A stretch of 27,878 nt of DNA from assembly GCA_050012755.1 (NCBI GenBank), contig JBEKGO010000033.1, forward strand, positions 1 to 27,878, written 5' to 3'. Position numbers and translations under genes: made by a program. The stretch comes from Candidatus Bathyarchaeia archaeon. Its GTDB lineage: Archaea; Thermoproteota; Bathyarchaeia; Bathyarchaeales; Bathycorpusculaceae. Shown piece after piece: positions 11,661-27,569 of the stretch (the stretch's first letter is position 1; each line of letters opens with the position of its first letter). The notes below the pieces were generated by a model that saw only the letters and a program-made list of their open reading frames with translations, had not been told where the DNA came from and did no database searches.

Positions 11661-12135
11661 TTTTTTGGTACTTTTTTATACTTTTTCGTACGTTCCTAAC
11701 CTTTTTGGTACGTTTCAAACCTTTTCTAGCCTTTTCTAACCTTTTCTGTACGTGACCTGCAACTAATTCAAACCCTAAATCTAAAAAGCAACCCAAAACA
11801 CAAAGAAAAAAATTGCGCCACAAAAACCGTCAATAACTGGTTCGCGACGCGAAAAGCCAACCTGCCTCTTTCTTTTTTCTTCCGTTTTCTTACATTTTCT
11901 TGCAGATCCTTGCATTTTCTCACATTTAGAGAAGCAACATGCAAACAAACTAAGCTCTAATTCCAAAAAACAGTCTAAAACACAAAGAAAAAACCTATAC
12001 GAAAACCCATCAATGACGTTGCTTCGGTAGGGATTTTTTGGGATGTTTCTAGATGTTTTGGGATGTTTTAAGATTATGGTTGCAATAGATTTGAGCCCCA
12101 AAATTAGAAAAGCAACTTAAACCACAAAGAACAAA
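11661..12135 (+). repeat. cluster of 3 [10-mer array + 60-bp core] elements; cores at 11751, 11933 and ~12074
   Basis: Arrays of CTTTTCTAAC type (11661-11750), TACATTTTCT type (11871-11930) and GGATGTTTTG type (12031-12074), each followed by the core. Confidence 0.92.
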
Positions 12136-12247
12136 ATTTCATTAAGAATATTGTAGCCTTTTCTTGTCATATGTAGATTGTCTCTTTCAATATTCTGTCC
12201 TTTATCTGGACCTTCAGGGGCAGTCATAATATGTCGAAGATGCGAGT

Positions 12248-12643
12248 CTATTTAATGCTGTCTAATGTGGAACCGTTTGCCGCAGGTGTTATTTTTTTGA
12301 TTAGCCTCAAGTCTTCCGTTATTAGTTTTAGTTCTTTTGTCTTAGCAAAATAAACGTATGAAGCGTCGTAAAAAGTAATTTTTAGTTTTATTGCGGTGTC
12401 TAATATTTCTTCTTCACTGTCAGTTATCTCCATTACGTTCATTATGGTTAAGGTGTGCTTGATCGACTTTGCCAGCATTTTTGCTTCTTGCTCTGAAACC
12501 TTAGCGTGTAAGAGGCAGTCTTTCCAAATGATGTTTCCCAATTCATATCTTGCTAACTCTAAAGTGTAATTTCCAGCCAAAAACTCGATTTTGTTTTCTT
12601 TAATGGCTCTAAATATAGCTGAAGAATCAAAAAGACGCTTCAT
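12248..12643 (-). CDS. vapC: VapC PIN-domain toxin
   Basis: LFDSSAI, YELGNIIWK, ITFYDASY, LITED; ATGA overlap with the antitoxin. Confidence 0.93.
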   Translation of the reverse strand: MKRLFDSSAIFRAIKENKIEFLAGNYTLELARYELGNIIWKDCLLHAKVSEQEAKMLAKSIKHTLTIMNVMEITDSEEEILDTAIKLKITFYDASYVYFAKTKELKLITEDLRLIKKITPAANGSTLDSIK

Positions 12644-12873
12644 CGGCTATCCCTATCTTCTCTTATGCCCTTCACTATATCTTCTATGCTTACTTTTTCA
12701 AGTATCGGCTTCAACCTGTCTATCTCTTCTTTTAGCTCTTCCATCTCTCTTTTTTTCACTTCATCTTCAAGGGCTTTTCGCAAAATCTTAGACGGCTTGA
12801 TTTTGAACCTCTGAATTTTTTCTTTGAGTTGCTTGGGGATTTTTGTAGAAACTGTAACACATTGTTGCACCAA
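12640..12873 (-). CDS. vapB: cognate antitoxin (RHH/CcdA-like VapB)
   Basis: VTVSTKIPKQLKEK..IKPSKILRKALEDEV..IREDRD. Likely start TTG 12873 or GTG 12870, after GGTGA. Confidence 0.85.
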   Translation of the reverse strand: MVQQCVTVSTKIPKQLKEKIQRFKIKPSKILRKALEDEVKKREMEELKEEIDRLKPILEKVSIEDIVKGIREDRDSR

Positions 12874-13000
12874 ATTATTCTCACCGCATATTACTACTTT
12901 AAAGTAAGATAAAATAGTTTCCATAAGGTGCAAAGGAAATAAATAAGCAGTAACGTATGGAGCTGGGGATGGGAATTGGATCCATTTATGACAGCTTTTT

Positions 13001-13094
13001 TGGACTTATTTTGACGTTTTTGGACTTTTTCCGACTCAACCTGCCAAGAAATCAAACCCTAAACCAAAAAAGCAACTTGAAAAACAAAGAAAAA
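13001..13094 (+). repeat. single [10-mer array + core] element, GGAC/TGAC type; core at 13035
   Basis: TGGACTTATT TTGACGTTTT TGGACTTTTT CCGA|CTCAACCTGCCAAGAAATCAAACCCTAAACCAAAAAAGCAACTTGAAAAACAAAGAAAAA. Confidence 0.92.
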
Positions 13095-13274
13095 AATTCT
13101 GAAAAAAATAATTTGCGCTAAGAGAGCCTAACCAAGTAATAGGCATCTAATTTTCACAGAAGATCCTATACAAAGAAGAGAAGAGCTTTTCATGCGAATC
13201 AAATAGGAATATAGTTTCTCTCAGGCTTTTAGAACAACCTTATAAGTTAAAAAAACAAATAAGATTTGAGAAAA

Positions 13275-13469
13275 ATGACAATCGAAGTTGATCTAAAAGA
13301 AATAAAATCATTGCTGTCAGAGGTTAACCAGAAACTTGATTCGTTGCTTGAAGAAAAAGACACCCACGTAATTATGGCTCTTGAGGAGAAATCACTCAGG
13401 GATTTTCTAGAAAAAGAACCTGACCTTTATTCACTCAGAGACATCAAGGCAAAGGTTAAGTGTAATTGA
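13275..13469 (+). CDS. putative antitoxin of the MazF/PemK toxin
   Basis: Small acidic ORF (EEKSLRDFLEKEPDLYS) with TTGA overlap on the toxin. Start ATG 13275 or TTG 13266. Confidence 0.78.
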   Translation: MTIEVDLKEIKSLLSEVNQKLDSLLEEKDTHVIMALEEKSLRDFLEKEPDLYSLRDIKAKVKCN

Positions 13470-13792
13470 AAGGAAAAATAGTTCTGATCTCTTTTCCGTT
13501 TACTGACTTAACTTCGACAAAATTGAGGCCTGCGCTTGTTCTTTATGAAAGCGAAAAAGATGTCGTGGTAGCTTTTATTTCCTCAAGGATAGGAAAAGCA
13601 AGATCTGTTGACATTTTGATTAAGGAAAATCACTCAGAGTTCAAGAAGACTGGGCTTAAGGTTGCGTCGTCGGTAAGACTTGACAAATTGGCAACGTTAT
13701 CAAAAGAATTGATTCTTGGCGAAATAGGCGAAGTCGGTCCTAAACTTAAGATGGAAATAAACGAGAAAATATCTAAAACCCTCATTCTCTGA
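13466..13792 (+). CDS. mazF: PemK/MazF-family endoribonuclease toxin
   Basis: GKIVLISFPFTDLTSTKLRPALV, VVAFISS, TGLKVASSVRLDKLATL. Confidence 0.93.
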   Translation: MKGKIVLISFPFTDLTSTKLRPALVLYESEKDVVVAFISSRIGKARSVDILIKENHSEFKKTGLKVASSVRLDKLATLSKELILGEIGEVGPKLKMEINEKISKTLIL

Positions 13793-13870
13793 ACGGAAAA
13801 CATATCCAAGTTTGCGCATCTTTTCTTTGACTGTTAACCTTAGCTTTTTCACTTAGTTTCACTTTCTACT

Positions 13871-14281
13871 CTGAACATTTTTGGACTTTTTTGGACTTTA
13901 TTCGACTCAACCCGCAGCCCCTTCAAGCCCTAAATCAAGAAAGCAATCTAAAACACAAAGAAAAAAACCGCACAAAAACCTGTCAATAACTGATTCGGCA
14001 CGCAACAAACTAACCTGTCTTTTCCTTTTTCTTGTGTTTTTTTACAGATTCTTACATTTTTTTACATTTAGGGACGCAACCTGCAAACAAAACAAGCTTC
14101 AAAGCAAAAAAGCAGCTTGAACCACAAAGAACAAAAAATGGGAAGGGTTTGCTTAGGGTTGCTTAGGTTTGCGTGCTTTTGCTTCTGTTTACATGCTTGT
14201 GCTTAGGTTTACTTCTATTTACGCAGCCTGCAGACAAAACACAACCAAAAATAAAAAAGCAACCCAAAACACAAAGAACAA
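13871..14281 (+). repeat. cluster of 3 [10-mer array + core] elements; cores at 13906, 14075 and 14222
   Basis: Arrays of TTGGACTTTT type, TTTACATTTT type and GCTTAGGTTT type (14141-14220, 8 units). Confidence 0.92.
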
Positions 14282-14352
14282 AAAACAGACAAAACACGCC
14301 TACAAAACAGCACAAGCTCGGCGCTAAAACAAAAAAAGAAAATGGTGCGTTT

Positions 14353-14805
14353 TTAGTCTGTTCCTGATATGGTCATTGTGTCGCTGAAGCTTGAAATGCC
14401 AGTTATGCTTGGAGATACGGTTAACGTTATGGTTGCTGCTACTGCTTGCCCAGTTGATAGTTGTGCTCCTTGTTGGCTCCAGCTTATGGCTATGTAGGTG
14501 CTTGCTCCAGCGGGATTCCAATTGCTTGTTGTCAAGCTCAGTGTTATGGTGCCTGCGCCCGTGTTCTTTACGTAGACGGTTTGAGTGGCAACTCCTTCGG
14601 CTGAGATAGATCCCCAGTTCACTGAAGCCATTGTTGTGGTGCAGGCACTGTCAGAGTACACTCTGATGTTAGGCGAGGAGGTTGTGATTGACCCTGACGA
14701 ATTTATGTTTGCGCTCACGTTAATTTCACTGTAAGTGGTCATCGTTAAAGCGAACCCAGCCAAAACTAAACATATTATTGCAAAGATCATGATACTTTTT
14801 TGCAT
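14353..14805 (-). CDS. small secreted beta-rich protein, paralog 1 (candidate TasA/bundling-pilin-like subunit)
   Basis: Signal peptide, then SSGSI, VYSDSACT, VNWGSI, TVYVKNTG, WNP, FS..ITISG pattern shared with 16969-17475 and 18604-19053. Confidence 0.85.
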   Translation of the reverse strand: MQKSIMIFAIICLVLAGFALTMTTYSEINVSANINSSGSITTSSPNIRVYSDSACTTTMASVNWGSISAEGVATQTVYVKNTGAGTITLSLTTSNWNPAGASTYIAISWSQQGAQLSTGQAVAATITLTVSPSITGISSFSDTMTISGTD

Positions 14806-15123
14806 ATTTACCTCTCTCTAGGTAACGTTGTTTGAATTGCCAGCCTATGAATTTCGATGTAAACGAGAGTAACAAAAAAACACATGATACTTTTCTAGCT
14901 TCCACATTAGAAGCCACGGCTACAACAGCTGCCATAGCTGAAAACTTCCGTCACACAGCCTCCAAGGTTGATATTGGATTGAGAAATAAATGCAAATTGA
15001 TGTTGAACGGATGAATCTTTTTTAGTGAAGCCGACTTTGCAAACCCGTGAAGCCGTCTTTTCAAAAACCAATAAAAGTAATTACTTCCCAATAGGGGGCT
15101 TGAGGGTATTGAGAGGGGCAAAG

Positions 15124-15549
15124 ATGGTTAGACGATCGGTGTTTGAAAAAATATTTCGCGAGATGCAAAGCATCCATTTTCGACTAGATGACTTGGAAAA
15201 AAACATTTCAAGTTGGAGTCCACATCCGGTAGAACTACCTGAAGCAGACCTATTCTCGCTATCGGATCACCTCCGCAAGACATACATGACCGTTGCTTCC
15301 ACAGGTGAATGCGATGCCATCCAAGTTTCAACCAAAACAGGCAGATGCCGAGCACTAGAAAGCAACTACCTAAACCAACTCTGCCGAATGGGCTGGCTAA
15401 ACAAACGAAAAGTCTCCAAATCAACCCACTTCTACCTAGCCCAAGAAAAAACACCCAGAAAACAACCCTTAATCGTAGTAGATATCCCTCGAAAAATGCC
15501 CAAGCTCCAAATCGGAAAAGACTTCAGAAAATTCTTCGCTGAACCATAG
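15124..15549 (+). CDS. winged helix-turn-helix DNA-binding protein with an N-terminal coiled coil
   Basis: LSDHLRKTY..AIQVSTKTGRCRALESNYLNQLCRMGWLNKRK. Start ATG 15124 after GAGGGG. Confidence 0.8.
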   Translation: MVRRSVFEKIFREMQSIHFRLDDLEKNISSWSPHPVELPEADLFSLSDHLRKTYMTVASTGECDAIQVSTKTGRCRALESNYLNQLCRMGWLNKRKVSKSTHFYLAQEKTPRKQPLIVVDIPRKMPKLQIGKDFRKFFAEP

Positions 15550-15560
15550 GAATTAGAAAC

Positions 15561-15770
15561 ATGAAAAAACGAAACAGAACAATATCACTCTTGCTAATGC
15601 CCGCGATGGTTTTTGTCTGGGCACTCGGCTGGATCTTATACAACTTAGAATCAAAAAGCGAGCACAAAACCAGAAAAACAGTAACCCCCATAAAACTTAG
15701 ACAAACCTCAATAGGTTTTCCGCGAAGCTTCGCAGTTGAAAAACCCCCAAGAATCGATCCAACTCTTTAA
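15561..15770 (+). CDS. small single-TM protein
   Basis: Basic N-terminus then ISLLLMPAMVFVWALGWILY; starts 11 bp after the upstream stop. Confidence 0.65.
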   Translation: MKKRNRTISLLLMPAMVFVWALGWILYNLESKSEHKTRKTVTPIKLRQTSIGFPRSFAVEKPPRIDPTL

Positions 15771-15965
15771 CCCTAAACTTCAAAATCTGCTCTACCACCT
15801 TGCAAACGACACAATATTGGAAATCGGGTCTTCTAACCTGAAAAAAACACAATTTTGCCCTATTTAGGACTTAATTTATATCTACGTTTAACCTGTAGAT
15901 GCTCAAAAATCAAACGCAAGAGGACTGCGTTTCACCTACAATCAGCATCAAACAGGTTTCTAGAA

Positions 15966-16763
15966 ATGGCGGAAGATCAAGAAAACGTTTCAAAAGTACT
16001 CTCTACTCTCGCGCATCCAATAAGACGCAAAATACTCATGACTCTATGCGACAAAGGCGAAACCAGCTTCACCGACCTCATTAATGCACTAAATCTCGAT
16101 ACAGGCAGACTGAGCTTCCACATGAGAAGCCTCAAACCCTTCATAGAGCCGACAAAATCAGGAAAATACAAACTTAACCGAACAGGCGAAGACGCGATCA
16201 GAATCATTAGAGATGTAGCATCTTGGGCAGAACTTGCCGACCTAAAACGAAAAAGTGCCATGCTAACTCCGGCACCCATCAAAAACCGCATCTACGCATT
16301 TCTAATAGACTTCTACCTTATGTTCACCATTGCCGTGTTGCTTCTGCTTGAAACAGTAATTTCACAAGTTCAAGCCAACACAATAGGCGTTCTTTTAAAC
16401 CTGCTGTTTGTTTCATTAGGCATCCTCTGGATTTACTCCACTCTCTTTGAAGGCTTCAAAGGACAAACTCTGGGCAAACGCGCCTTAGGCTTGATAGTCA
16501 TAAGAACAGACGGCATGAAAGTAGACTACGAACACTCAGCAATAAGAAACTTTGGCAAGGTTATTCTACCCGTCGACCTAGTCTTAGGATACATGCTAAA
16601 GGACCCAAAATACATCCGCTACTTCGACAAATTCGCGGGAACCGCAGTCATCGAACTCCGCACCCGCCAAAACAAACTTCCCAAAAACACAAATCAGCAT
16701 GACCAAATGCAACCATTATTGCAACCTGAACTTCTTAATCAATCCAAACAAACCGTAAACTAA
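15966..16763 (+). CDS. ArsR-type wHTH fused to an RDD-family membrane domain
   Basis: LAHPIRRKIL..SFTDL..GRLSFHMRSL..Y.L followed by RIYAFLID, EGFKGQTLGKRALGL, IRN, DKFAGTAVI. Start ATG 15966. Confidence 0.9.
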   Translation: MAEDQENVSKVLSTLAHPIRRKILMTLCDKGETSFTDLINALNLDTGRLSFHMRSLKPFIEPTKSGKYKLNRTGEDAIRIIRDVASWAELADLKRKSAMLTPAPIKNRIYAFLIDFYLMFTIAVLLLLETVISQVQANTIGVLLNLLFVSLGILWIYSTLFEGFKGQTLGKRALGLIVIRTDGMKVDYEHSAIRNFGKVILPVDLVLGYMLKDPKYIRYFDKFAGTAVIELRTRQNKLPKNTNQHDQMQPLLQPELLNQSKQTVN

Positions 16764-16968
16764 ACCAAAAACGTCTGCAATTGGGTTCCGGTAACTTAGC
16801 GTGGGAAAATGCTTTCCATGTTAACGATCGTGAGATAACTCGTTTATTATGGTGATACAAACTTGCAAGTCATGCTGGGATGTCTCCAAAGGCTTTAACG
16901 AAAAAATGCTCTTCGAGAAAGATTTCTTAGGGAAAAAGGAAGGAGTGCAGGAAGGTTTTTGTGGTGAG

Positions 16969-17475
16969 TTATTGGGAGCCGGTTATGGTTATGCTGAAGT
17001 TGAACGAACCTGCTGTTGCGCTTGATGAAGCTGCCAATGTTAGGGTTGCGGAGGTTGATGCGCCTGCGGCTAGGGTTGTTACTGTGGGGACCCATGTGCA
17101 TGTGAGGTAGGTGTTTGCGTTTGATGGGGTATAATTGCTTGTGGTCATGCTGAGAGTCTCTGCGGTGTTGCCTGTGTTTTTGATGTAGATGGTTACGGTT
17201 GTTTGGCTGCCGGGGGTTATGGTTCCCCAGGTTACGGCTGACATGGCTGTTGTCAGGCCTGCGTCGCTGTAGATGGATACGCCAACTGTTTGGATTGGTG
17301 TTGGTGTGGGTGTTGATGGTGGAGGTGTTGGTGCGGGTGTTGATGTTGGTGTGATTGATCCGGTTGCGGCCAAGGTTTGATTTGCGCTTAACAAACCTGA
17401 AGTGGCTATGACAAGCATCATGCCAACTAAGCCTATTACGATTAGTACTCCTATGTTAGGTCTTTTCAACTTCAT
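16969..17475 (-). CDS. small secreted beta-rich protein, paralog 2 (with Pro/Thr insertion)
   Basis: MKLKRPNIGVLI signal peptide as in paralog 3; WGTITPGSQTTVTIYIKNTGN. Confidence 0.88.
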   Translation of the reverse strand: MKLKRPNIGVLIVIGLVGMMLVIATSGLLSANQTLAATGSITPTSTPAPTPPPSTPTPTPIQTVGVSIYSDAGLTTAMSAVTWGTITPGSQTTVTIYIKNTGNTAETLSMTTSNYTPSNANTYLTCTWVPTVTTLAAGASTSATLTLAASSSATAGSFNFSITITGSQ

Positions 17476-17590
17476 GTTCTTATTACCTTTTAGTATGGTC
17501 ACTTGAGTCGGAAGTATTAATAAATGTTACTTTGTGGAAATCTTAACTGTAAATATGCACAACAACGATACACAAACAAACCAAAGCAAA
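17476..17590 (-). promoter_or_regulatory. archaeal promoter (purine-rich BRE-like + TTTATTAATA at 17524-17515), duplicated upstream of paralog 3
   Basis: About 115 bp closely similar to 19054-19170. Confidence 0.7.
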
Positions 17591-17600
17591 CAAAGAATCG

Positions 17601-17882
17601 TTTTTGACGGGTAGTGACGTTCTGTGACGTTTTATGACGCGTAGTGACGCAGCCTGCAAAAGATTCAAACTTAGATTCGAAAATCAGTCTAAAACACAAA
17701 AACAAAAAATAGCACAAACACAAAAATGTGGGATCCCTAATAGCTTTCACTTATTTCACTTTTCTGCCCGAACTTTTTGGACCGTTTCAAACCTTTTCTA
17801 ACCTTTTCCAACCTTTTTAAACCGCAACCTGCAGATAAATCAAAGCCTAAACCAAGAAAGCAACTTGAAACAAACTGAACAA
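17601..17882 (+). repeat. cluster of 2 [10-mer array + core] elements; cores at 17648 and 17823
   Basis: GTAGTGACGT-type array (17601-17648) and ACCTTTTCTA-type array (17771-17822). Confidence 0.92.
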
Positions 17883-18138
17883 ATTTGAAACAAGAAAACA
17901 GGCTCACATAGACAGGCTTGGAACAACAAGAAGAATCGGCAGGACACATTCTGTCCAACACAAAAACAACCCACATTGACAAACAGATAGCAATTCTGAA
18001 AAAGTGTCTCATGAAATATTGCACTATTTTGATCAATTCTCTTGTTCACACGCATATCAGTTAGTACGAACCAACATTGAAAAATGCTATGAGCGTAGAG
18101 CAACACTACATATTCTAAATCAACTTGAAGTGAGCCGC

Positions 18139-18474
18139 ATGGTAAAACTACTATCGATAATTTGTTCTACACTATTTCTTTTAGGAGCAGCAGATTTGCT
18201 CACTACAGTGATTGGGGTCACAGGAAAAGGCGCAATCGAAGTTAACCCTCTTTTTGCAGCAATCATCCAGACAAACATCCTGGCTTTTGTTGGACTAAAA
18301 ATTGCCACTGTTCTTTTCACGGGCTTTATGTTTCTGGGCGCGGGAAGAATTTCTAAAGGGGCAGGCAGCAATATCTTAGGAAAATACTTTATGCTCTCCG
18401 CCTCATCTATCTCTTGTTTCATAATGACAGCAGTCGTAGCAAACAACCTCTTAGTCCTCCTACGAATTCCGTAA
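18139..18474 (+). CDS. DUF5658-like small membrane protein
   Basis: ADLLTTVIGV..GAIEVNPL..LKI..VVANNL with 3 TM segments. Start ATG 18139. Confidence 0.8.
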   Translation: MVKLLSIICSTLFLLGAADLLTTVIGVTGKGAIEVNPLFAAIIQTNILAFVGLKIATVLFTGFMFLGAGRISKGAGSNILGKYFMLSASSISCFIMTAVVANNLLVLLRIP

Positions 18475-18561
18475 CAAACTCAAAGCACTATTTTCCAAAA
18501 AGAAAGAACAAAGAAAACGCTGACAAGTTTTTGAAAATAGAATGCTCAAGAAAAAGGAGAG

Positions 18562-18593
18562 AAAGGGGATGAGAAGTTTTAGTTGTCCCCTTT
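18562..18593 (-). terminator. possible terminator downstream of paralog 3
   Basis: Inverted repeat AAAGGGGA..TCCCCTTT followed on the minus strand by a pyrimidine/T-rich tract. Confidence 0.4.
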
Positions 18594-18603
18594 TTACAGT
18601 TGT

Positions 18604-19053
18604 CTACTGAGTGCCGGTTAAAACAATGTTGCAGCTGAATGTTGTGAGTGCACTGGCGCCTGATAAAGCGGTCAGGGTCAGGGTGGCTAAGGTGGATTGT
18701 CCAGCGGTTAAAGTTGATAAGGTTGGCGACCAAGTTATTGTTAGGTATGTGCCTGCGTTTGATGGGGTCCAGGTATTTGTGGCCATGGTTAAGTTTTCTG
18801 CGATGTTTCCGGTGTTTTTAACGTAGATTGTTTGTGTTACTTGTGTTCCTGGCGATAGGGTTCCCCAAGATACTGTGGTTATTGGTACTGTGCATGCGGC
18901 GTCGCTGTAGACTCCAAGGTTTATTCCTGCTATTGTTCCGCTTGCGGATAGGGTTTGATTTGTGCTCAATAAACCTGCTGTGGCTATGATAAGCATCATG
19001 CCTACTATGCCTATTGCGATTAGTACTCCTATGTTAGGTCTTTTCAACTTCAT
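18604..19053 (-). CDS. small secreted beta-rich protein, paralog 3
   Basis: Signal peptide, LSASGTI, LGVYSDAACT, WGTLSPGTQVTQTIYVKNTGN. Confidence 0.9.
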   Translation of the reverse strand: MKLKRPNIGVLIAIGIVGMMLIIATAGLLSTNQTLSASGTIAGINLGVYSDAACTVPITTVSWGTLSPGTQVTQTIYVKNTGNIAENLTMATNTWTPSNAGTYLTITWSPTLSTLTAGQSTLATLTLTALSGASALTTFSCNIVLTGTQ

Positions 19054-19170
19054 GTTCTTATCCCCTTACTATATGGTCAAGTGAGTCTTAAGTATTAATA
19101 AACATTACTTTATGGAAATCTAAACTGAAAATATGCACAACAACAATACACAAACAACACAAAACAAACA
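19054..19170 (-). promoter_or_regulatory. archaeal promoter (TTTATTAATA at 19102-19093), duplicate of 17476-17590
   Basis: Direct alignment by eye. Confidence 0.7.
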
Positions 19171-19220
19171 AAACACCCACAAACACACCCACAAGCGCCG
19201 AAACAAACCAATTACACCCC

Positions 19221-19690: not shown

Positions 19691-19753
19691 AACCTGCACA
19701 AAAACCTGTCAATGACCGATTTCACACATTTCTAAAAGATGTTTCCAGGGGGT

Positions 19754-20479
19754 TTAGGGGTTGTGTTGTTTGTACCAGGTTTCCATGTATGTGTTGATTA
19801 TGTCTCCGTGGTAGCAGTTTCGGGTTGGGTTGTAGCTGAGGATTTCTCTGTTTTTTTCGTTTAGGTTGTAGTATGTGATTTCTGATATCATGGTTTCTTT
19901 GTCTGTGGATTCTTTGTTGCCGTAGCTTGCAAGTTTTGAGGCTTCTTCGATTACGTTGCCCATCCAAATTACTTCGCCTACGCCGCTGCCCCTGTAGCCA
20001 GTTTTCACCGCTAGGGCTTTTCCATATGACATTCCTACGCCAATGGCTATTTCTTTCAGGTTATTTTTCTTTAATTTATAATTCATTATGTCGATTAGGG
20101 ATGAAATTCTGGCTGCGGTTGAAAAAACTTCGTCGACGTCCTCTTGGAACGGAGTATCGAAAACCCCCCAAACAGAACCATCTGCGATGTTTATTTCCGC
20201 ACATTTTGGGTTGCCATTCATGACGGCGGTAACTTCAGAAATGAAGACTCTGTAAAGTTTGATGTCTGCTATGTTTGTATGAAAATTGGTCAGTTCAGGT
20301 GATTTGCGGATATCTACGCAGAGGGCTGAGCATTTGACGTAAAATCCGTTAATGTAGGTTAATTCGTTGCGGGCTGGGATGCGGTCTCGTTCCTCGTAGT
20401 TGCTGTCTTGGGCTGTTACTATTTGGTTGATTCGGTCAACGCTGTCTTTAACATTATACTCTGCATGGTCGGTTTTCAT
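19754..20479 (-). CDS. stand-alone class III nucleotide cyclase-fold protein with atypical catalytic motifs
   Basis: ALCVDIRKS, INIADGSVWGVF, IGVGMSYG, WMGNVIEEASKLAS, MISEITYYNL. Confidence 0.85.
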   Translation of the reverse strand: MKTDHAEYNVKDSVDRINQIVTAQDSNYEERDRIPARNELTYINGFYVKCSALCVDIRKSPELTNFHTNIADIKLYRVFISEVTAVMNGNPKCAEINIADGSVWGVFDTPFQEDVDEVFSTAARISSLIDIMNYKLKKNNLKEIAIGVGMSYGKALAVKTGYRGSGVGEVIWMGNVIEEASKLASYGNKESTDKETMISEITYYNLNEKNREILSYNPTRNCYHGDIINTYMETWYKQHNP

Positions 20480-20567
20480 TAATCTTCATCTATCCCCAGC
20501 CAATTATTAGGAATTTTGCCTTGCCTCCGCTGAGATTTTTCTGCTCAGTGCTATGCTTTCTGGCTGT

Positions 20568-21509
20568 TTAAACAATTGATGAAGTTCTCTGTACTTGGGC
20601 GTTTACAGCATCGGCTAACGCTTTACATGCTGCTTGCCTAGCCTCGGTCGATGTGTCGGTTTCCAGGTTCACTAGCTCTTCACGCAAACTCTCCATTCGA
20701 CCCATAATAGCCTGCTTTCGTTTCTCGTAATCTTCATCTAGTTTGCGCTGCTCATCGGCAAAATTCTGTTGCGCTACTTCGAGGTCATTCTTGGCAGACT
20801 TTAGATCTAGTTTCATTTGAGGAACTTTGTCGTCAGTTTTCTTTTTGAGGATTTTTCGTTTGCTATTCTCTTCTACTTGGCTTAGCACTTCACGTTCTAG
20901 TTCTCGCACGCGATTTGAAAGTCGTTGGAGTTCGGAGTCTTTTTTGGCGCTGAGTTCTTTGGCTTTTTCAGCATATTCTTTATCGGTTTCTACTAGAAGA
21001 TGATTGTGGTCAGTTAGGGCCTTCGCAACTGTGTCGATGTTTGCTTCTTCCATTTTTTTCTTCGAAAGTACATTTCCGACTTCAAGAAGAATCTGAGAGC
21101 GATCCTTGATAAACTGCTCATCCACTTTCACTGGGGAATCAGACTCAAAATCCGAGATGACCCGGCGCAGATTACTAAGCCAAGCATCATAATTTTCAGC
21201 AAAAGGAGAACCTGAAAAAGCCTGGGTTCCAAGCTGATTTGACTCGTTGAGCGTTTTCTCTGCAAGTTCTCTTAAATGTGCCAAATTTCTTTCTTCAACA
21301 GACTCATCGCTTACAGGTAATTGCGGTTTTTCAGCGCCCATCAGCGCTTTTAACGAATGGATTTCATCTTTCAAGGCGGCAATGTCATTTTCTAAAACAT
21401 TTGATTTAGCTTCAGCGATTCTTTTGAGTTCTTCAACTTCCGCTAAGAGGCTTTGTTTTTCAACTTCCAAATTTTTCAGTTTATCAACTGTACTCTTAAG
21501 ACTACTCAC
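20568..21509 (-). CDS. long coiled-coil hypothetical protein
   Basis: 313 aa, E/K/L-rich heptads, no TM; GTG start after GGGGGA. Confidence 0.85.
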   Translation of the reverse strand: MSSLKSTVDKLKNLEVEKQSLLAEVEELKRIAEAKSNVLENDIAALKDEIHSLKALMGAEKPQLPVSDESVEERNLAHLRELAEKTLNESNQLGTQAFSGSPFAENYDAWLSNLRRVISDFESDSPVKVDEQFIKDRSQILLEVGNVLSKKKMEEANIDTVAKALTDHNHLLVETDKEYAEKAKELSAKKDSELQRLSNRVRELEREVLSQVEENSKRKILKKKTDDKVPQMKLDLKSAKNDLEVAQQNFADEQRKLDEDYEKRKQAIMGRMESLREELVNLETDTSTEARQAACKALADAVNAQVQRTSSIV

Positions 21510-22136
21510 TCGAATAATCCCCCTTCATTCTTGGGACACAATATCTTTTTTTGCACTTAAAACTTTTGCATAAATGACCAGAAAAAAACGCCAAGTTGCC
21601 AAGAAAAGCAAGACCTAAGCACAATTAATACATACGCTAACTCGTAACAAAAAATTAAAGGCTGATGTAGCCTACATGAAAACAGCTTACTTAACGACTA
21701 ATAATTCGTTTCTTGGCAAAACCTCTATCTTAACAGCAACATCAACTGAATTAACAGAGTGTTTTTCATTCCTATTTACAATTTCTTTGTAGGAAATGAA
21801 ATAATTTAGCAATCTTGCTGCTTCTTCATATTGAATATTGCCTTCAATTCTTGCATTCTAATCGTTTCTCCTTTCTGGGAAACCGTATTATCTTAATTGA
21901 AGATCAAGCATTTCATAATAAGCACATACCGCTCACTCAGCTAACCGTCAATACGTGAAACTGCAACAGAAATCGCGAATAAATTTGCAAATATTGTATC
22001 TTAAAACTCAATATTGCAAGATTATAGACAAACACTGCATTTTTCCTCAATATTTCTTCTAATATTGATTCTGAATTCATAAGTGACTTATATATTCACA
22101 ATCATACTTGCCGCTAAGAATCAGGAAGGAAAAAAA

Positions 22137-22361
22137 ATGAAACAAATAACAAGCAAAAACAGGAAACAACTAAAAAACAAAATGTCAGAAGCCTTAAGCA
22201 GCAACATTAAAACGCTCTCAGCTGAAATGCAAGAAATACTAGTAGACGATCTTGTTACTGCATTCGAAAACAGATATGAAGTATTAAGCGATGCACAGTT
22301 AAACCTGCATTGCTTTGAAAACATTGGGGTGAAGGTTCCAAATGCGACGATCAAAGCTTGA
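22137..22361 (+). CDS. small hypothetical protein, coupled to the downstream wHTH
   Basis: LSAEMQEILVDDLVTAFENR; ATG 22137; 20-bp overlap with the next gene. Confidence 0.72.
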   Translation: MKQITSKNRKQLKNKMSEALSSNIKTLSAEMQEILVDDLVTAFENRYEVLSDAQLNLHCFENIGVKVPNATIKA

Positions 22362-22635
22362 AATGTATGTAGACATTCTCCAGGTATTAGCTTTCAAAGG
22401 ACCATTAAAACTAACACATATAATGTACAAATCAAACGTTAACTGCAAAGTTCTGAAATCTCAATTAGACTTCCTTATGAAAAACGGGTTAGTAGAAGAG
22501 AGAATTCTTCGAAGAGAAAAAGTAGTCTACGCTATTACACAAAAAGGCATCTCAACGCTGAAAGCATTTACTCAGATAAAACAAGTATTTCCAATTGAGG
22601 AAAAACAAGTCAGACAAGTGCCTCTTCTCTACTAA
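22342..22635 (+). CDS. archaeal winged-helix transcription regulator (HTH_45-like)
   Basis: MRRSKLEMYVDIL..THIMYKSNVN..LDFLMKNGLV..YAITQKG. Confidence 0.92.
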   Translation: MRRSKLEMYVDILQVLAFKGPLKLTHIMYKSNVNCKVLKSQLDFLMKNGLVEERILRREKVVYAITQKGISTLKAFTQIKQVFPIEEKQVRQVPLLY

Positions 22636-22804
22636 AAACTTTTTTTAACACTTTTAATGATGAGTCCAAAACCCCAAGTTACCTATTTCTTTCTTAATTT
22701 TTCTACTCACAGCTTTTGATCTGCGGCTTAAACTATTCATCACGCAATTTATTTTTGATTGAAATCAGTGTCGATCGAGCCAAGCTTGAACTCAACTTTT
22801 GATA

Positions 22805-23206
22805 TTAAACTGCATAATGCTCTCTATCTTTGGGAGAGCTACGCGCAATATTGAATTGCAAATTTTCATCACGTGATGGATTGTTCTCTGTTCCTATGAT
22901 TCTGCAAATTGTTTTTAGTGAACCAGTGGTGTATTCAAGCAAAGATTTTCCTTCACCTGTTAATGAATATACTTTTTTTGGTCGTTCCCCATTCATGTTC
23001 CATTGACATTTTATGAAGCTTTTCTTTTCCATAGTATTCAGTGTGGGGTATATTGTGCTTGCGCCAAAACTCACTCCATAGGATTTACGTATCGTCACTA
23101 TTAGCTCATATCCGTGCATTGGGTGGTTGTCGAGTAGTTGGAGGATGATTAGGTCTAATAGGCCTTTGGTGAGTTTCGTTTGGATGTTTTTGTGTACTAT
23201 GCTCAT
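22805..23206 (-). CDS. PadR-family transcription regulator
   Basis: GLLDLIILQLL..PMHGYEL..STIYPTL..ME..RPKKVYSLTGEG. Confidence 0.93.
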   Translation of the reverse strand: MSIVHKNIQTKLTKGLLDLIILQLLDNHPMHGYELIVTIRKSYGVSFGASTIYPTLNTMEKKSFIKCQWNMNGERPKKVYSLTGEGKSLLEYTTGSLKTICRIIGTENNPSRDENLQFNIARSSPKDREHYAV

Positions 23207-23481
23207 TTTTTTTCTTCCTGTATTTTTGTTGTGCAGGTGTACAATATGTCCGCTGTCAGACCTATTGCCACATGAATCTCAATATACAATAAAGTGCCAT
23301 ATAAAACCTGCGACATACCACAGGCATATCAAAACGCAACAAAAAAGCCCAAGCCAGACAAAAAACATTAAAAAACAAGGAAACAACCATTAGAAAACCA
23401 CTGAAAAGTGCCAACAAAACCGCAAAAAAGAACTGTACAACACAAATACATGAAAAAATAGAAGCAGAAGCATAAAATAAA

Positions 23482-23850
23482 CTAGAAGTTCTCAACATGC
23501 TGTTTTAATGAGTCAACGTAAAACTCAAAACTCAAATTTGATCCTTCCAGCAAATAATTAAATGAAGGATCCTTCTGCTTTAAAGCTTTCATTATAGCAA
23601 GTTCAAGGAGAAAGGCGGTCGGCCCAAAAACTTTTTCAAGTCCATCAACAAAATCCCCTATTCTGCCAGGTATGTCTTTCTTGCTTAGTTTGTATTTTTT
23701 GTCCAAAAAAGAAAAGAGCGCTTGCTTAGAATTCGTCCCGAGCAGAATTAAGAAAGATTGATCAATTGCTTCAAGAAGGAGGTCGTCAAACTTTGAATTT
23801 TGAAGATCTATCTGAATTTTGGGGAAGTTTTCAGTTTGTGTTTGATCCAT
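23482..23850 (-). CDS. conserved archaeal hypothetical protein (DUF3227/NitrOD5-like helical domain)
   Basis: LLEAIDQSF..LG..KQAL..L..KY.L...IP.RI..F..GLEKVFG..A.LLE..IMK.L. The family name is from memory. Confidence 0.75.
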   Translation of the reverse strand: MDQTQTENFPKIQIDLQNSKFDDLLLEAIDQSFLILLGTNSKQALFSFLDKKYKLSKKDIPGRIGDFVDGLEKVFGPTAFLLELAIMKALKQKDPSFNYLLEGSNLSFEFYVDSLKQHVENF

Positions 23851-24224
23851 TTTGGTGTCACTTCTTCCTTGCTGTTGTTTTGTCTTACTTGACTACAGTT
23901 TAAATGTAGTAAGTCTTAATATATCAATTACTTTGTTTTTTGACATATTACGAAAATCGATATATACAAAGAAGACATAAAACACATCAAAATTGAACTT
24001 GTCGGAAAGTTTATGACATATTGCATTAAACGAAATATCCCTTTTAAAGCTAAACCACCTCTAAATTTTTGAGGAGCAAAGGAGAAAGCTTCTTACGGGG
24101 AGAGGGAGAACCCTTATCCCTTCTCAGAAACTGAAAATGATTATCCCTCTAACCCGTATTTTTTTCAGATCAAGCGTAAATTTGCGAGTATGAAACAAGT
24201 TATTGACGGATTTTTGTGCGGTTT

Positions 24225-24470
24225 TTGTTGTTTGTGCTTTGGGTTGCTTTTTTGGTTTAGGCTTTGATTTGTCTGCAGGCTGCGTAAATAGAAGCAAACC
24301 TAAGCACAAGCATGTAAATAGAAGCAAAAGCAAGTAAACCTGCGCAAACCTAAGCAAACCCTGCCCCATTTTTGTTCTTTGTGGTTTAAGTTGCTTTTTT
24401 AATTTGGGGCTCAAATCTATTGCAACCATAATCTTAAAACATCCCAAAACATCTAGAAACATCCCAAAAA
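24225..24470 (-). repeat. cluster of 2 [10-mer array + core] elements on the minus strand; cores 24431-24372 and 24284-24225
   Basis: The GGAT-type unit is a near-identical inverted copy of 12036-12137. The GCTT-type unit is a close inverted copy of 14120-14281. Confidence 0.95.
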
Positions 24471-24529
24471 GTCAAGAAAAGTTGGAAGCGTGAGAAGAAA
24501 AGAAAATGGAATTAGCAGATTTCTTTAAC

Positions 24530-24742
24530 TTATGCAACTGTTACTTCTTTTTTTGCTAAACCTTCAACCATCAATGGAACTATTTTGCTGGCTCTAAGTA
24601 TTTCTAAGAAGAGAGGGTTGCCTCTGTCGTCAACGTGAAGTATCATGTCACCTACTTCTTGCGCCTGGGCAAGTTTACCTTTCTCTTTTACAAAAATCGT
24701 GAGCACATCTGCATCATCGTCATATTTGATTTTATAGGTCAT
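24530..24742 (-). CDS. DUF2283-family protein (putative antitoxin)
   Basis: IKYDDDADVLTI...ILHVDDRGNPLFLEILRAS. Confidence 0.88.
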   Translation of the reverse strand: MTYKIKYDDDADVLTIFVKEKGKLAQAQEVGDMILHVDDRGNPLFLEILRASKIVPLMVEGLAKKEVTVA

Positions 24743-24995
24743 ATCGATCTCTTCTTACAGGATAAAAGGTTATAATAACTAAAAAATCTTTTCTGCTCTC
24801 ATAAATGACTCTTAAGGCATGTTTACGGCTAATAACTTTGGAGGCAAGAAACTGACCGCCCCTTTCATCGAGCCGTTGAGGTTGAAGAACAACTTCCAAA
24901 ACCTTTTCTTTCCCAATTTCAAATCCGTATTGTTTCAGAACCTCGAATTTCTCAACAGCATGTTTTGTAAACCTGATTTTTGAAGCCCTATCCAA
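24732..24995 (-). CDS. DUF4258-like protein (putative RelE/BrnT-fold toxin)
   Basis: IRFTKHAVEK..V.EVV..P..LRVIYE..VIITFYP; overlaps the DUF2283 gene. Confidence 0.82.
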   Translation of the reverse strand: MDRASKIRFTKHAVEKFEVLKQYGFEIGKEKVLEVVLQPQRLDERGGQFLASKVISRKHALRVIYESRKDFLVIITFYPVRRDRYDL

Positions 24996-25092
24996 ACAAC
25001 TAATCCCTAAATCATGTAATAACGAAGTTTACAGATAAACTTTGCATATCACTATTTTGTCCAACTAGTTTACAATTCTGTTTCGGCAAATT

Positions 25093-25526
25093 TTGTTCTT
25101 TGTGTTTTGGGTTGCTTTTTTGGTTTAGGGTTTGCAATGTTTGCAGGCTGCGTGTTTATTTGTGTGAATTTGTGTTGAAATGTGTCTAATTGTGTTAAAA
25201 TGTGTTTATATGTGTAATTTTGTGTGGAAATGCGCGAAAACGGGGCGATTATTATAAGGTTTCTGCACAAGACTTTGTCCTCTGTACATTGGGTTGCTTT
25301 TTTAGTTTTAGGGTTTGATTTCTTGGCAGGTTGAGTCAAAAAAAGTCTAAATAAGTCCAGAAAAGTTCAGCAGGAAAAGTAAAGGGCAGTAGAGTATATT
25401 TTTTTGGGCAAAATTTTTTCTCTGTATTTTGGATTGTTTTTTGCTTTGGAGCTTGTGGCGTTTGCGGGTTGAGTCCCATAAATCATAGGAGTCCCCCAAG
25501 GTCCCAAAAAGCCAAAATGGTCAAAA
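25093..25526 (-). repeat. cluster of 3 [10-mer array + core] elements on the minus strand; cores 25473-25414, 25335-25275 and 25152-25093
   Basis: GGGAC-type (irregular), GGAC/TGAC-type and ACAC-type arrays (TGTGT every 10 bp on +, 25153-25230). Confidence 0.92.
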
Positions 25527-25564
25527 GAAAACCGTTTACTCAGATCTTTAATACAACTTCAGCC

Positions 25565-25966
25565 TTACTTCATTTCCTTTATTGGAATTGCGACCTTGCA
25601 TTTCTTTAGCAAGTCTGTGTCCGCAGTGACTAACCTCATTTCTTCTTTTTCAGCGATGTATGCATATGAAGCATCATAGAATGTAAGATGCCTATCTATT
25701 GCAACTGCCAAAACGTTGGCTAATGAGTCAATCTCCATCTTTCTTAGAGGTTGAATGAGTTCGAAAAAGATTGTTGCTACTCTTTTGGGGTCCTTGAGCT
25801 TTTTTTGCTGGTTTTCCCTCCAGAGCACGTTTCCAATCTCATATTCCGTTAGGGAACTCACTGCACATTCGTCTGCATTGAATGCAATACCCGAGAGAAG
25901 TATGGGATATAATGCAGAGGTGTCTATGAGATATTTACATCTCGTGCCTTGTCGCTTTGACATCAT
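25565..25966 (-). CDS. vapC: VapC PIN-domain toxin
   Basis: YLIDTSAL, YEIGNVLWR, LTFYDASY, LVTAD. Confidence 0.93.
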   Translation of the reverse strand: MMSKRQGTRCKYLIDTSALYPILLSGIAFNADECAVSSLTEYEIGNVLWRENQQKKLKDPKRVATIFFELIQPLRKMEIDSLANVLAVAIDRHLTFYDASYAYIAEKEEMRLVTADTDLLKKCKVAIPIKEMK

Positions 25967-26162
25967 TTACCCATTCCTCAGGTTTAACATCCATCAGACT
26001 GCTGAGTTCTTTAGCGATTTTCTGTGCTTTTGCTTTTTTTTCAGCCACTAATTCCTCAAGAAGTTGCTCCACAGCCACTTTTAAGTCAACTCCTAGCTTC
26101 TCAGCTTCATCTTTCAAGCCTTTCTTGACTCTTACAGATAAGACTTCAGTCATTGTATACAC
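25935..26162 (-). CDS. vapB: cognate antitoxin (RHH/CcdA-like VapB)
   Basis: VLSVRVKKGLKDEAEKLGVD..EEWVNDVKATR; overlaps vapC. Confidence 0.87.
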   Translation of the reverse strand: MYTMTEVLSVRVKKGLKDEAEKLGVDLKVAVEQLLEELVAEKKAKAQKIAKELSSLMDVKPEEWVNDVKATRHEM

Positions 26163-26205
26163 CTAAGATATAATGTATACGACTTTCATATAAGATTTTG
26201 TGACG

Positions 26206-26265
26206 CTTCATTTTGTTTGGTTAAACAATTCTTCGGTTTAGAGTTTGTGGGTTAGGCAGACTATA
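26206..26265 (-). repeat. degenerate core element between two vapBC pairs
   Basis: Minus strand TATAGTCTGC CTAACCCACA AACTCTAAAC CGAAGAA matches the first two thirds of the consensus in register. Confidence 0.45.
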
Positions 26266-26528
26266 AGCAAAAGGCCTTTGAAGAAAACAAGTGAAAGAAT
26301 CAGCAGTTAAGCGTTAATGAACAGGCTTTTATGGTTGTAAAACTGGAAAGTTGACATGGTATTCAGCGAAAGCTCAAAGACGCCCAAATAATTTTCTTGA
26401 CCATATATAGTAATGTCTTGATAACTTGGAAGCTTCCTTACATGAATCTTAGCTTTGGCACTGTCATATAATCAATAAATTGTTTGAGAATATTTTCTAT
26501 TATTTTTGCTTGAGCTTGAATAGCCATC

Positions 26529-26930
26529 CTATTTGAAAATAAGCTTCAAATAATCCAACTTGCCCAAGTGCTTTTGGTCGTTCGAATAAACCTCGTAGAT
26601 GCCTAACCTCATCATTAATGCTAGATTCACGCCATCGTTGAAATCTATATTTTCGGTAGCCATGTTACTTGCCCCAACAAGCAAATCATCCTGCGTACAA
26701 GCAACGACTTCAAGTGTTCGGTATGACATAATCTCCTCAAGTGTTGGCTTAATATCTCCCTGCCTGCCCATAGATTCTAGTACCCAAACTACCTCACACA
26801 GCACCAATGTAGAGGTTACAGCTCTCTCGCCTTTCTCAATGCGTTCAAGAATATCCTTGGAGATTTTGCCAAAACGTGGATGAGCTGTGAGGGTATAGAT
26901 GAAAATGTTGGTATCTAAAAAACGACTCAC
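26529..26930 (-). CDS. vapC: VapC PIN-domain toxin
   Basis: FLDTNIFIY, TSTLVLCEV, IDFNDG, VYSND; GTGA overlap. Confidence 0.93.
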   Translation of the reverse strand: MSRFLDTNIFIYTLTAHPRFGKISKDILERIEKGERAVTSTLVLCEVVWVLESMGRQGDIKPTLEEIMSYRTLEVVACTQDDLLVGASNMATENIDFNDGVNLALMMRLGIYEVYSNDQKHLGKLDYLKLIFK

Positions 26931-27196
26931 TCAAAATCCTCAACTAACTTTTTTCGAATATAGTCTCGCGCTAACTCCTTTGGCTCTTCAATGGGTCTCT
27001 CTATCTTTACGGAGCCGTACAGCGCCTCAGTCGGCTTATGATATGTCTTAACAGGTACTAGGCAAATACGACCCATGTAATCTGTAATGATAAGGCGAAT
27101 GCCCTCATCTATTCCATATTTTTTCCGAATTTTCTTAGGCAGTATCATACGTCCATATCTGCCAACTTCAACAGACATTTTTCCTATACCTGACAA
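26927..27196 (-). CDS. vapB: AbrB/MazE/SpoVT-type antitoxin
   Basis: VGRYGRMILPKKIRKKYGIDEG. Start may be ATG 27178. Confidence 0.9.
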   Translation of the reverse strand: MSGIGKMSVEVGRYGRMILPKKIRKKYGIDEGIRLIITDYMGRICLVPVKTYHKPTEALYGSVKIERPIEEPKELARDYIRKKLVEDFE

Positions 27197-27416
27197 ATAA
27201 TCAATTAAACGCCAAATATATGTTTTATTGCCAAAAAACAGTTTCGATTCTTAGAGAGTGTATCTTGTTAGCGCTGTTTCGATATTCAACTTAATCACTA
27301 TCTCTTGTGTTACTACTTTATTATTTTGACGAATTAACTAATTAGTATTTTGCTATTTTTTGAATTTAGTGAAGTAGCCTTATTTATCTTATGGACTACA
27401 ATGTTTTAATTAAACT

Positions 27417-27550
27417 TTGGTCTTTGTGCTTCAGTTTGATTCTTTTGTTCAGGATTTGCCACGTTTGAATGTTGCGACTAGATTTGACTGATTTAGGCTC
27501 TTTATGACTTGATTAGACTCTTATTGACTATTTTTGACTGATTCTGACTT
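27417..27550 (-). repeat. single [10-mer array + core] element, AGTC type; core 27476-27417
   Basis: GACT (one GGCT variant) recurs every 10 bp on + at 27476-27549 (8 units). Minus-strand core CGCAACATTC AAACGTGGCA AATCCTGAAC AAAAGAATCA AACTGAAGCA CAAAGACCAA. Confidence 0.88.
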
Positions 27551-27569
27551 ATTCTCTAAATGCTTTGGT

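Follow-up and report, generated by a model that had tools for sequence, protein, structure and literature searches.

What a short intergenic unit that recurs 18 times in a single archaeal contig might be, and how it came to be there, is the question raised by JBEKGO010000033.1, 27,878 nucleotides of DNA from a Candidatus Bathyarchaeia archaeon (assembly GCA_050012755.1). The whole of this contig (C33) is referred to here as the window; it belongs to a 2.41-Mb genome assembly of 65 contigs, designated G000. Read directly from the window, each unit consists of a copy-specific run of 10-bp units followed by an abutting, A/C-rich core of ~62 bp, and in some copies a CCGTCAATAAC-like extra block lies beyond the core. 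A previous, sequence-only reading of the window had offered three options: a site bound by a protein, a site of recombination or a non-autonomous mobile unit. With a probability that we put at roughly 0.6, the element is the upstream control region (a promoter-operator cassette) of a small, autoregulated DNA-binding protein gene, amplified without that gene.

An nhmmer profile of the 18 window cores, run against the whole genome, finds 124 copies in G000 at E<1e-3, and the family makes up about 0.9% of the assembly. The earlier concern that shuffled or A/C-rich DNA might match equally well is dispelled by the complete absence of matches in G000 shuffled in 100-bp blocks, and likewise in 2.4 Mb of random sequence with the A/C-rich composition of the core. 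The 18 clear cores of the window, whose 5' ends were each confirmed by direct reading, score 28-54 bits; recovery of all 18 is by construction, because the profile was built from them. Two degenerate copies that had been placed at 1696 (+) and 26265 (-) give no match even at E<10 and are not counted, the former resembling the core over only about its first 10 bases. Core length is conserved, as had been claimed: 121 of the 124 copies have no insertion in profile positions 1-60, while 81 have no deletion and 21 have one. The intergenic location holds as well, with only 4/124 cores overlapping open reading frames (ORFs) from a crude gene caller; these ORFs have low scores (6-8) and are taken to be spurious.

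Tandem Repeats Finder places period-10 or period-20 arrays beside most window cores. Genome-wide, when lags of 4-15 were compared over the 80 bp upstream of each core, autocorrelation was highest at lag 10 for 122 of the 124, and a lag-10 match of at least 0.6 is reached by 63/124 of these upstream stretches versus 0/1153 control intergenic windows. A 10-mer array had been described on the 5' side of every clear window copy; by a stepwise criterion this is so for 16 of the 18, with 4-9 units each, and the arrays at 19296 and 25473 are weak or offset. All multi-copy array types read C-N8-A, and their C keeps the phase of core position 1; the first 10 bases of the core therefore act as though they were the final unit, or box, of the array. 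Twelve multi-copy array types and 16 singletons are present in G000, and homology between copies spans about -100 to +95 around the core start. As the sequence-only reading held, this is unlike a CRISPR array: the cores reach only 76% mean column identity, and the stretches between them are repeated subfamilies with an internal 10-bp periodicity.

A co-distributed gene, for which a search had been proposed, was found: an unannotated gene for a 92-aa AbrB-fold protein, in a fixed, divergent layout beside array and core. When the predicted proteins encoded within 1.5 kb of G000 elements were clustered, one small family recurred, four of its five members adjoining elements; no other gene family recurs beside the elements in this clustering, transposase, integrase and Rep-like families included. 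Eight loci of the 92-aa family are found in G000 by tblastn, paralogues on contigs C2, C14, C17 and C53 among them; two of the eight are cut in the 5' part of the gene by a contig end. At all six uncut loci the gene is divergent from array and core and starts 47-142 bp from the 5' end of the core, so that the array sits between core and gene. The same layout extends through the genus. When the 30 best loci, drawn from 30 species, were scanned with nhmmer, 20 had an opposite-strand core 28-111 bp upstream of the gene; visual inspection of the remaining 10 loci showed a short array with a degenerate core in eight or nine. G015 has 14 protein loci, of which about 10 adjoin a core match. The protein occurs in 37 of 61 genus genomes, and gene and core agree in 58 of the 61 (both present in 35, both absent in 23), the exceptions being G023 with the core only, and G003 and G072 with the protein only, on weak hits in both. 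No gene family is conserved downstream of the 92-aa gene across 30 loci, and its neighbours in G000 are unrelated.

Twenty further loci of the gene, 19 from other genera of the class and one from this genus, were scored for a strongly 10-periodic upstream window (50 bp with a lag-10 match of at least 0.55, in the 230 bp upstream of the gene). Such a window precedes 10 of the 20, versus 23 of 2208 control upstream regions, and many of the 20 also carry a TTTAAGC-type, TATA-like sequence beyond the boxes. Because 10-periodic arrays precede the gene in other genera, the box array predates the amplification and ranges beyond it. Species differ in how many gene-less copies they have; the 18 copies of the window all belong to this solo kind.

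A search of 5.8 billion proteins returned 25 relatives of the 92-residue protein, one of them named by its source as a PrlF-type antitoxin/regulator; the nearest Atlas clusters are annotated "hypothetical protein" and mostly labelled Bathyarchaeota. Modelled confidently with AlphaFold2 (pLDDT 89.9) from an alignment of 26 rows, the protein consists of two repeated strand-strand-helix-strand halves. The model's best Foldseek match in the PDB is 2glw, PhS018 of Pyrococcus horikoshii (E 6.7e-5, TM 0.70, 87/92 columns), which is the sole match below E 0.001; the next matches are MraZ chains, including cryoEM complexes of MraZ with its promoter (E 0.03-0.1, probability 0.89-0.98), and the structural neighbours in the Atlas are AbrB, MazE and MraZ clusters. 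The protein is thus modelled as one chain of two AbrB-like halves, with a fold like that of PhS018 and, more distantly, of MraZ. By way of this linked AbrB-fold gene the protein-binding option is the one favoured among those first proposed, as a predicted site with indirect support, and array and core are better read jointly, as the operator plus promoter region of the gene, than as a free-standing element.

On the strand of the gene, the cassette would begin with T-rich conserved blocks (the distal core), followed in a subset by a TATA-like TTAAAT, by the conserved CGCAACC-type first box at the core start, by 3-9 more boxes exactly 10 bp (one helical turn) apart, and finally by a ribosome site and the gene. 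By analogy with MraZ on its 10-bp-spaced boxes, one protomer of an oligomer would sit on each box along one face of the DNA, and the occupancy of the boxes would regulate transcription that passes through the array or next to it. Of the 61 species searched in this genus, roughly 19 appear to have amplified the cassette to tens to >100 gene-less solo copies, which would now form many box-sequence subfamilies and frequent co-oriented tandem clusters in gene-poor accessory DNA (in the window, toxin-antitoxin islands). Solo copies may serve as additional docking arrays for paralogues of the regulator, whether as decoys, as roadblocks or insulators, or as local operators acting on neighbouring genes.

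Promoter-like words are found where such a cassette might have them. Upstream regions in G000 are enriched in the hexamers TTTATA, TTAAAT and CTTAAA, with a peak 40-50 bp before start codons; a TATA-like word lies on the gene-ward strand of 31/124 cores, and GCTTAAAT-type words on that strand of many gene-linked cores, those of other genera included. At the gene-linked locus on contig C2, 67 bp separate the TATA-like word from the start codon, a stretch that holds three or four boxes and a GGAGG, and therefore the transcription start would fall at the first box. In another clade of the protein the TATA-like word lies between array and gene instead, so the arrangement is non-uniform. The proteins carry two DNA-loop motifs, N-R/T-x-Q-x-P and G-R-I-T-x-P. 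Among gene-linked modules, CG-type boxes accompany all seven proteins whose first loop reads N(T/K)VQ, and NRxQ proteins have GAC/TAC-type boxes, a match of clade and box that would fit co-evolving protein-box pairs.

Several observations weigh against the promoter-operator explanation. A canonical promoter in every core was considered and rejected, since 93/124 cores have no TATA-like gene-ward word. Nor are solo copies placed as promoters would be: the neighbouring gene on the array side starts there in 36 cases and ends there in 29, and the TATA-bearing subset behaves likewise (10 starts versus 8 ends). Core profile positions 31-62, the most conserved part, are not accounted for by a promoter and operator. 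The co-variation of box and protein is a single phylogenetic split, and linked inheritance alone would yield the same result. The commonest array types of G000 have no gene-linked copy (GACT with 33 copies, TTTGCTT with 16, GTGACG with 10 and GAGACG with 9), and most solo arrays are for that reason without a demonstrated cognate paralogue, with the reservation that two gene copies are cut by contig ends. The co-occurrence of core and protein is partly circular, because each gene brings its own core. Finally, no Pfam family, MraZ (PF02381) and SpoVT/AbrB included, matched at E up to 1 in scans of three proteins and then of 26 family members, and a sequence profile run against PDB sequences places 2glw first with a weak score (E 0.061, 16.7 bits, residues 7-73).

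Archaeal RNA polymerase terminates at oligo-T, and the distal core is T-rich on the gene-ward strand, with a run of at least five T in 111/124 cores and of at least six in 88. Runs of at least five T also occur on the plus strand in 76 of the 124 arrays. Facing gene ends are close by, the median distance being 48 bp for the 29 that face the array and 82 bp for the 30 that face the core, and copies are enriched in gaps between convergent and between divergent genes. These features might suggest a bidirectional terminator or insulator, selected for its oligo-T runs and in need of no dedicated binding protein. T runs alone, however, do not account for the strict 10-bp phasing or the fixed register of the core; the G/A-rich or A/C-rich arrays that have no T runs (48/124), the conservation of core sequence and the linkage to a protein gene are equally left over, and we regard a terminator of this sort as highly improbable in its own right. 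Within the promoter-operator explanation, it is possible that the T-rich distal core stops incoming transcription as a secondary property, and termination could then be an attribute of the cassette and not a rival to it.

A small non-coding RNA gene or a short peptide gene, with the core as conserved transcript, would be in keeping with the strand asymmetry of the core (A 51%, C 25%). In a subset, an ATG at the end of the core leads into a conserved TGTTGTTGTTC-type stretch whose variants look codon-like, giving M-A-T-Q/P-L-L-L-F-Y or tiny M-F-F-F-stop frames. This motif is, however, present in only 6/124 copies of G000, the ORFs from ATG-ending cores are short with differing ends, and 1-bp indels occur with no marked 3-base periodicity of conservation; a coding reading of the core was rejected. 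Predicted consensus folds contain no base pairs on either strand, for the 18 cores and for 16 of the 18 full window elements. Rfam 15 contains no matching family: only two hits have E<1, mir-19 at 27.6 versus a gathering score of 50 and a vertebrate long non-coding RNA, both far below gathering score and judged to be chance. Transcript or peptide genes therefore appear scarcely tenable. A limited search of the literature on Bathyarchaeota/Bathyarchaeia repeats found nothing relevant.

Further motifs beyond the core were noted in subsets of copies. A GCACAAAAAACCGTCAATAAC-like second conserved block occurs at +55 to +110 after 27/124 G000 cores and often runs directly into the next array; in the window it follows the cores at 11751, 13906, 19631 and 24284. 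A TGTTGTTGTTCTA(T/G)CAGACAA-like or TGTTCTTCTTC-like motif is found 70-95 bp past the core start in another subset (in G000 at C59:2814, C54:1514, C53:7098 and C16:51536) and in many gene-linked modules of other species (loci L040, L042, L050, L055, L070, L078-L082 and L089). It often begins at the ATG that ends the core, as a tiny Leu/Phe-rich frame.

The distribution of the family bears on how it may have spread. In searches of relatives with a covariance model of the 18 cores (sequence only), core matches turned up in 14 of the 24 further genus members searched and in none of the 16 genomes searched from other genera of the order. Across 61 genomes of the genus, 36 have matches, with 1 to >100 per positive genome and 94 in G015, a 10-contig assembly; G043, G055 and G063 are likewise high-copy species. 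About 19 of the 61 have at least 10 core matches, and in most of the other positives there are about as many cores as genes. Relatives share the architecture of in-register 10-bp array and core, with unit sequences that partly differ. Five relatives with family members at other loci (G015, G020, G004, G046 and G018) lack the element at C2:32242, a site flanked by two conserved convergent genes (64-98 bp versus about 240-320 bp), and the site at C11:33109 corresponds to a 27-bp gap in G046. Because orthologous sites are empty in relatives, the element has been gained or lost and the family spreads. No exact junction could be obtained at C35:9364, where synteny is broken, or at C17:39637, where relatives carry other insertions, gene-linked modules among them. 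In two relatives a gene-linked module (protein gene and arrays) follows one and the same conserved gene, at G015:C5:316057-318186 and at G046:C14:41265-43067; the G000 counterpart, C17:38200-39701, has a solo element only, in the opposite orientation to the two modules. The dispersing unit foreseen by the sequence-only reading is thus borne out by a patchy, genus-limited range, by copy numbers that run from 0 to >100 and by orthologous sites that are empty; no hallmarks of transposition were found.

These same facts speak for a purely selfish, non-autonomous element of the miniature inverted-repeat transposable element (MITE) kind, in which array and core would be kept for a transposition or recombination machinery and the AbrB-like gene would be a passenger or accessory factor. 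Recent copying is suggested by a few pairs at unrelated loci that are 97-98% identical (up to 98% over 168 bp), copies accumulate at the contig ends of the assembly, and co-directional, operon-like gaps are avoided (27/65 clusters versus about 63% of all gaps). The protein gene is itself multi-copy, with broken copies in several genomes. Against this, the aligned ends of one subfamily have no terminal inverted repeats. The lack of palindromy and terminal inverted repeats reported earlier holds up, with only low-complexity T-rich/A-rich complementarity of 72-92% and a single exact T6/A6 pair of 10 nt. The one subfamily with well-defined ends shows no visible target-site duplication; in relatives, intergenic DNA has diverged too far for exact junctions to be fixed. 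No transposase, integrase or Rep-like family accompanies the copies. Most copies are old, with a median identity to the best partner of 81% and only 6/123 at 95% or above, and the array-gene layout exists at low copy in other genera and hence predates any burst. A purely selfish element is on balance unlikely. Selfish spread is compatible with the promoter-operator explanation as far as copying goes and differs from it only in denying a regulatory role; together with core-to-core recombination and a terminator or insulator function, it partly overlaps that explanation.

A bolder variant is a self-propagating "mobile operator": the AbrB-fold protein, encoded by the sole gene of the unit, would polymerise on the array, and the filament would either drive transposase-free copying or recombination into new sites or build chromatin roadblocks or insulators, while diversifying protein-box specificities would keep the subfamilies separate. 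We think this quite unlikely; if true, it would constitute a new kind of archaeal mobile or chromatin element.

The arrangement of copies along the genome was examined for rules of its own. The 124 copies group into 77 clusters, of which 31 hold two to five units at a spacing of ~140-190 bp; orientation is mixed in none of these 31, and the order of array types within clusters differs between loci. Of 21 pairs of neighbouring clusters separated by less than 5 kb, 19 share one orientation, compared with 5 of the 13 pairs that lie more than 10 kb from each other. Sixty-five clusters are flanked by genes to left and right and follow no orientation rule with respect to those genes: gene starts face both sides in 22 and gene ends both sides in 16, while a start on the array side and an end on the core side are found in 14, and the converse in 13. 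Across 49 islands in G000, element orientation is linked neither to local GC skew or AT skew nor to gene direction. By eye, from the hit list only, core orientation in G015 is biased over hundreds of kb on two contigs: plus cores predominate on C6, while on C5 minus cores predominate between 44 and 425 kb and plus cores past 521 kb. A replichore effect, not seen in the fragmented G000, may lie behind this bias.

In the window itself, the first 12 solo elements are on the plus strand. Element 1 (11691-11812) has six array units at 11691-11750, with weaker units back to ~11661, and its core at 11751-11812; a copy on contig C11 is 98% identical to it from -89 to +78. Element 2 (11863-11994) has seven TTACA-type units at 11863-11932 and a core at 11933-11994 that is followed by a CCGTCAATAAC-like tail. 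Element 3 (12024-12135) comprises five GGGATG-type units at 12024-12073 and a core at 12074-12135, the first bases of which are unlike those of other copies; an inverted copy, element 14 at 24370-24481, shares 97% identity with it. Element 4 (12995-13096; four GGAC-type units at 12995-13034, core 13035-13096) lies between a PIN/antitoxin pair and a MazF pair. Element 5 (13866-13967) has four units at 13866-13905 and a core at 13906-13967, then the tail motif. It is succeeded by element 6 (14015-14136; six TTACA-type units at 14015-14074, core 14075-14136) and by element 7 (14142-14283), whose eight TTTGCTT-type units at 14142-14221 show a 20-bp super-period and precede a core at 14222-14283. 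Elements 8 (17598-17709; five GTGACG-type units at 17598-17647, core 17648-17709) and 9 (17773-17884; five AACC-type units at 17773-17822, core 17823-17884) come next. Element 10 (19240-19357) is the most degenerate clear copy, with a weak, offset array at ~19240-19295 and a 28-bit core at 19296-19357. Close by are element 11 (19383-19504; six GTGAC-type units at 19383-19442, core 19443-19504) and element 12 (19571-19692; six TTGAC-type units at 19571-19630, core 19631-19692), the latter followed by the tail motif.

The remaining six elements are on the minus strand, with the core at the lower coordinates. Element 13 (24223-24364) has its core at 24223-24284 and eight TTTGCTT-type units at 24285-24364, and element 14 (24370-24481) its core at 24370-24431 and five GGGATG-type units at 24432-24481. 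The core of element 15 (25091-25242), at 25091-25152, has the top score of the genome, 53.8 bits, and adjoins nine CACA-type units at 25153-25242. Element 16 (25274-25375) combines a core at 25274-25335 with four GGAC-type units at 25336-25375; element 17 (25412-25500) has a core at 25412-25473 and a weak array only, at ~25474-25500. Element 18 (27415-27556; core 27415-27476, eight AGTC-type units at 27477-27556) faces, on its core side, the MazE-type antitoxin/PIN pair at 26529-27196.

That pair is one of several toxin-antitoxin-like pairs that are dense at 12248-13792 and 24530-27196, all between element clusters: PIN proteins are encoded at 12248-12643, 25565-25966 and 26529-26930, a MazF-like protein at 13466-13792, a MazE-type protein at 26927-27196 and a DUF4258/DUF2283 pair at 24530-24995. 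Three paralogous small proteins of 149-177 aa, each with an N-terminal hydrophobic segment, are encoded on the minus strand at 14353-14805, 16969-17502 and 18604-19053; each gene adjoins an element cluster, and for one of the proteins weak Ig-like/CARDB-type hits were obtained. By eye, the DNA upstream of the second and third genes (~17503-17600 and ~19054-19200) is A/C-rich and much alike in the two. A 581-aa protein at 8376-10121 (-) has a Thr/Pro-rich C-terminal repeat, encoded by a 90-bp tandem repeat at 8668-8879 (2.4 copies, 97% matches). The 241-aa protein at 19754-20479 (-) and the coiled-coil-looking 313-aa protein at 20568-21509 (-) have no Pfam family; a paralogue of the latter, at C18:4215-5084, adjoins another element.

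Small accessory genes such as these PIN/antitoxin pairs, MazF and DUF4258/DUF2283, set between co-oriented cores, bring to mind a cassette-shuffling site, at which cores would act as direct-repeat crossovers for integron-like excision and reinsertion of the intervening gene cassettes or of empty units. Uniform orientation in all 31 multi-element clusters, its persistence between neighbouring clusters at short range and the varying order of array types all speak for such exchange. Pfam scans of 30 window ORFs nevertheless found no recombinase or transposase, and no recombinase gene recurs beside clusters elsewhere. The cores are neither palindromic nor predicted to fold, unlike attC sites, the intervening genes have no fixed orientation, and local tandem duplication would give co-orientation equally well. 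In four peat/wetland DNA runs, compared as contigs with positions 8000-27878, contigs break at cores and word depth is many-fold greater in core-bearing bins, the joints seen being other genomic copies; no excision or insertion junction, circle or deleted form was recovered from these contig-level public data. Cassette shuffling is accordingly very unlikely.

Should the promoter-operator explanation hold, an archaeal protein family that has no Pfam entry gains a testable proposed function, as an MraZ-like reader of 10-bp-phased boxes. The gene-linked modules would offer a natural set of protein-box pairs of differing specificity, from which it might be learned how single-chain AbrB barrels read DNA. 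It would also be an unusual spread of regulatory DNA, in which the promoter-operator of one regulator has turned into a dispersed repeat family. On the practical side, the family breaks assemblies and marks accessory, toxin-antitoxin-rich islands, and the core profile can be used for masking and scaffolding of genomes in the genus and for tracing the amplification burst among its species.

Among known systems, the element shares with MITEs a high copy number and presence or absence at orthologous sites, and differs from them in having no terminal inverted repeats; the imperfect, hairpin-forming palindrome that characterises attC and REP sites is likewise lacking. The bacterial mosaic repeats (enterobacterial REP/BIME, Neisseria NIME/dRS3 and pneumococcal BOX) are short, non-coding, high-copy, intergenic, modular families of narrow taxonomic range, some of which are docking sites for DNA-binding proteins. 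By this description the present family resembles them in combining a conserved piece with variable pieces in changing order. Those families are, however, built on palindromes or inverted repeats, which the present one does not have, and we know of no bacterial mosaic repeat that has a 10-bp-phased array or is derived from the operator of a linked regulator.

Minisatellites of 10-bp periodicity are carried by Helitrons of Caenorhabditis elegans, where the periodicity is ascribed to mutational remodelling (bioRxiv 10.64898/2026.08.08.743475). These are eukaryotic and are not known to have a linked gene for a dedicated binding protein, and the analogy is pertinent to the insulator idea only. At the level of the protein, PhS018 (2glw) is the best fold match and has the identical length of 92 aa, with only 17% identity. 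We take PhS018 to be a single-chain, swapped-hairpin (AbrB-like) barrel, the PDB titles saying only "solution structure of PHS018" and "92aa long hypothetical protein", and we know of no DNA target or function for it.

The closest parallel is with MraZ, the regulator of the bacterial division/cell-wall (dcw) cluster, in which mraZ is the first gene. According to PMC12957436, MraZ boxes consist of GTG(G/T) plus six spacer bases, i.e., a 10-bp period; three or four boxes, each taken by one subunit of an oligomer, lie upstream of the mraZ gene, and transcription starts within box 1. The 92-aa protein is shorter than MraZ chains of 131-141 residues and, in its model, resembles them at fold level only, as a single chain with two AbrB-type halves. 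It has 3-9 boxes in place of the three or four in that account, its box sequences differ between paralogues, and there is neither a dcw context nor a conserved downstream partner. Most notably, the operator has been amplified to tens or hundreds of gene-less copies, which to our knowledge is undescribed for MraZ, although no literature search aimed at this point was made. The protein does not belong to the Pfam MraZ family by sequence; the earlier remark that the element was not recognised from any described family nevertheless needs qualifying, since array and gene closely parallel the MraZ box operator in their layout. Both systems have direct-repeat boxes at 10-bp spacing immediately upstream of the regulator's own gene, and the logic of the MraZ layout, with boxes before the gene and a transcription start at the first of them, would match the layout proposed here for the Bathyarchaeia cassette.

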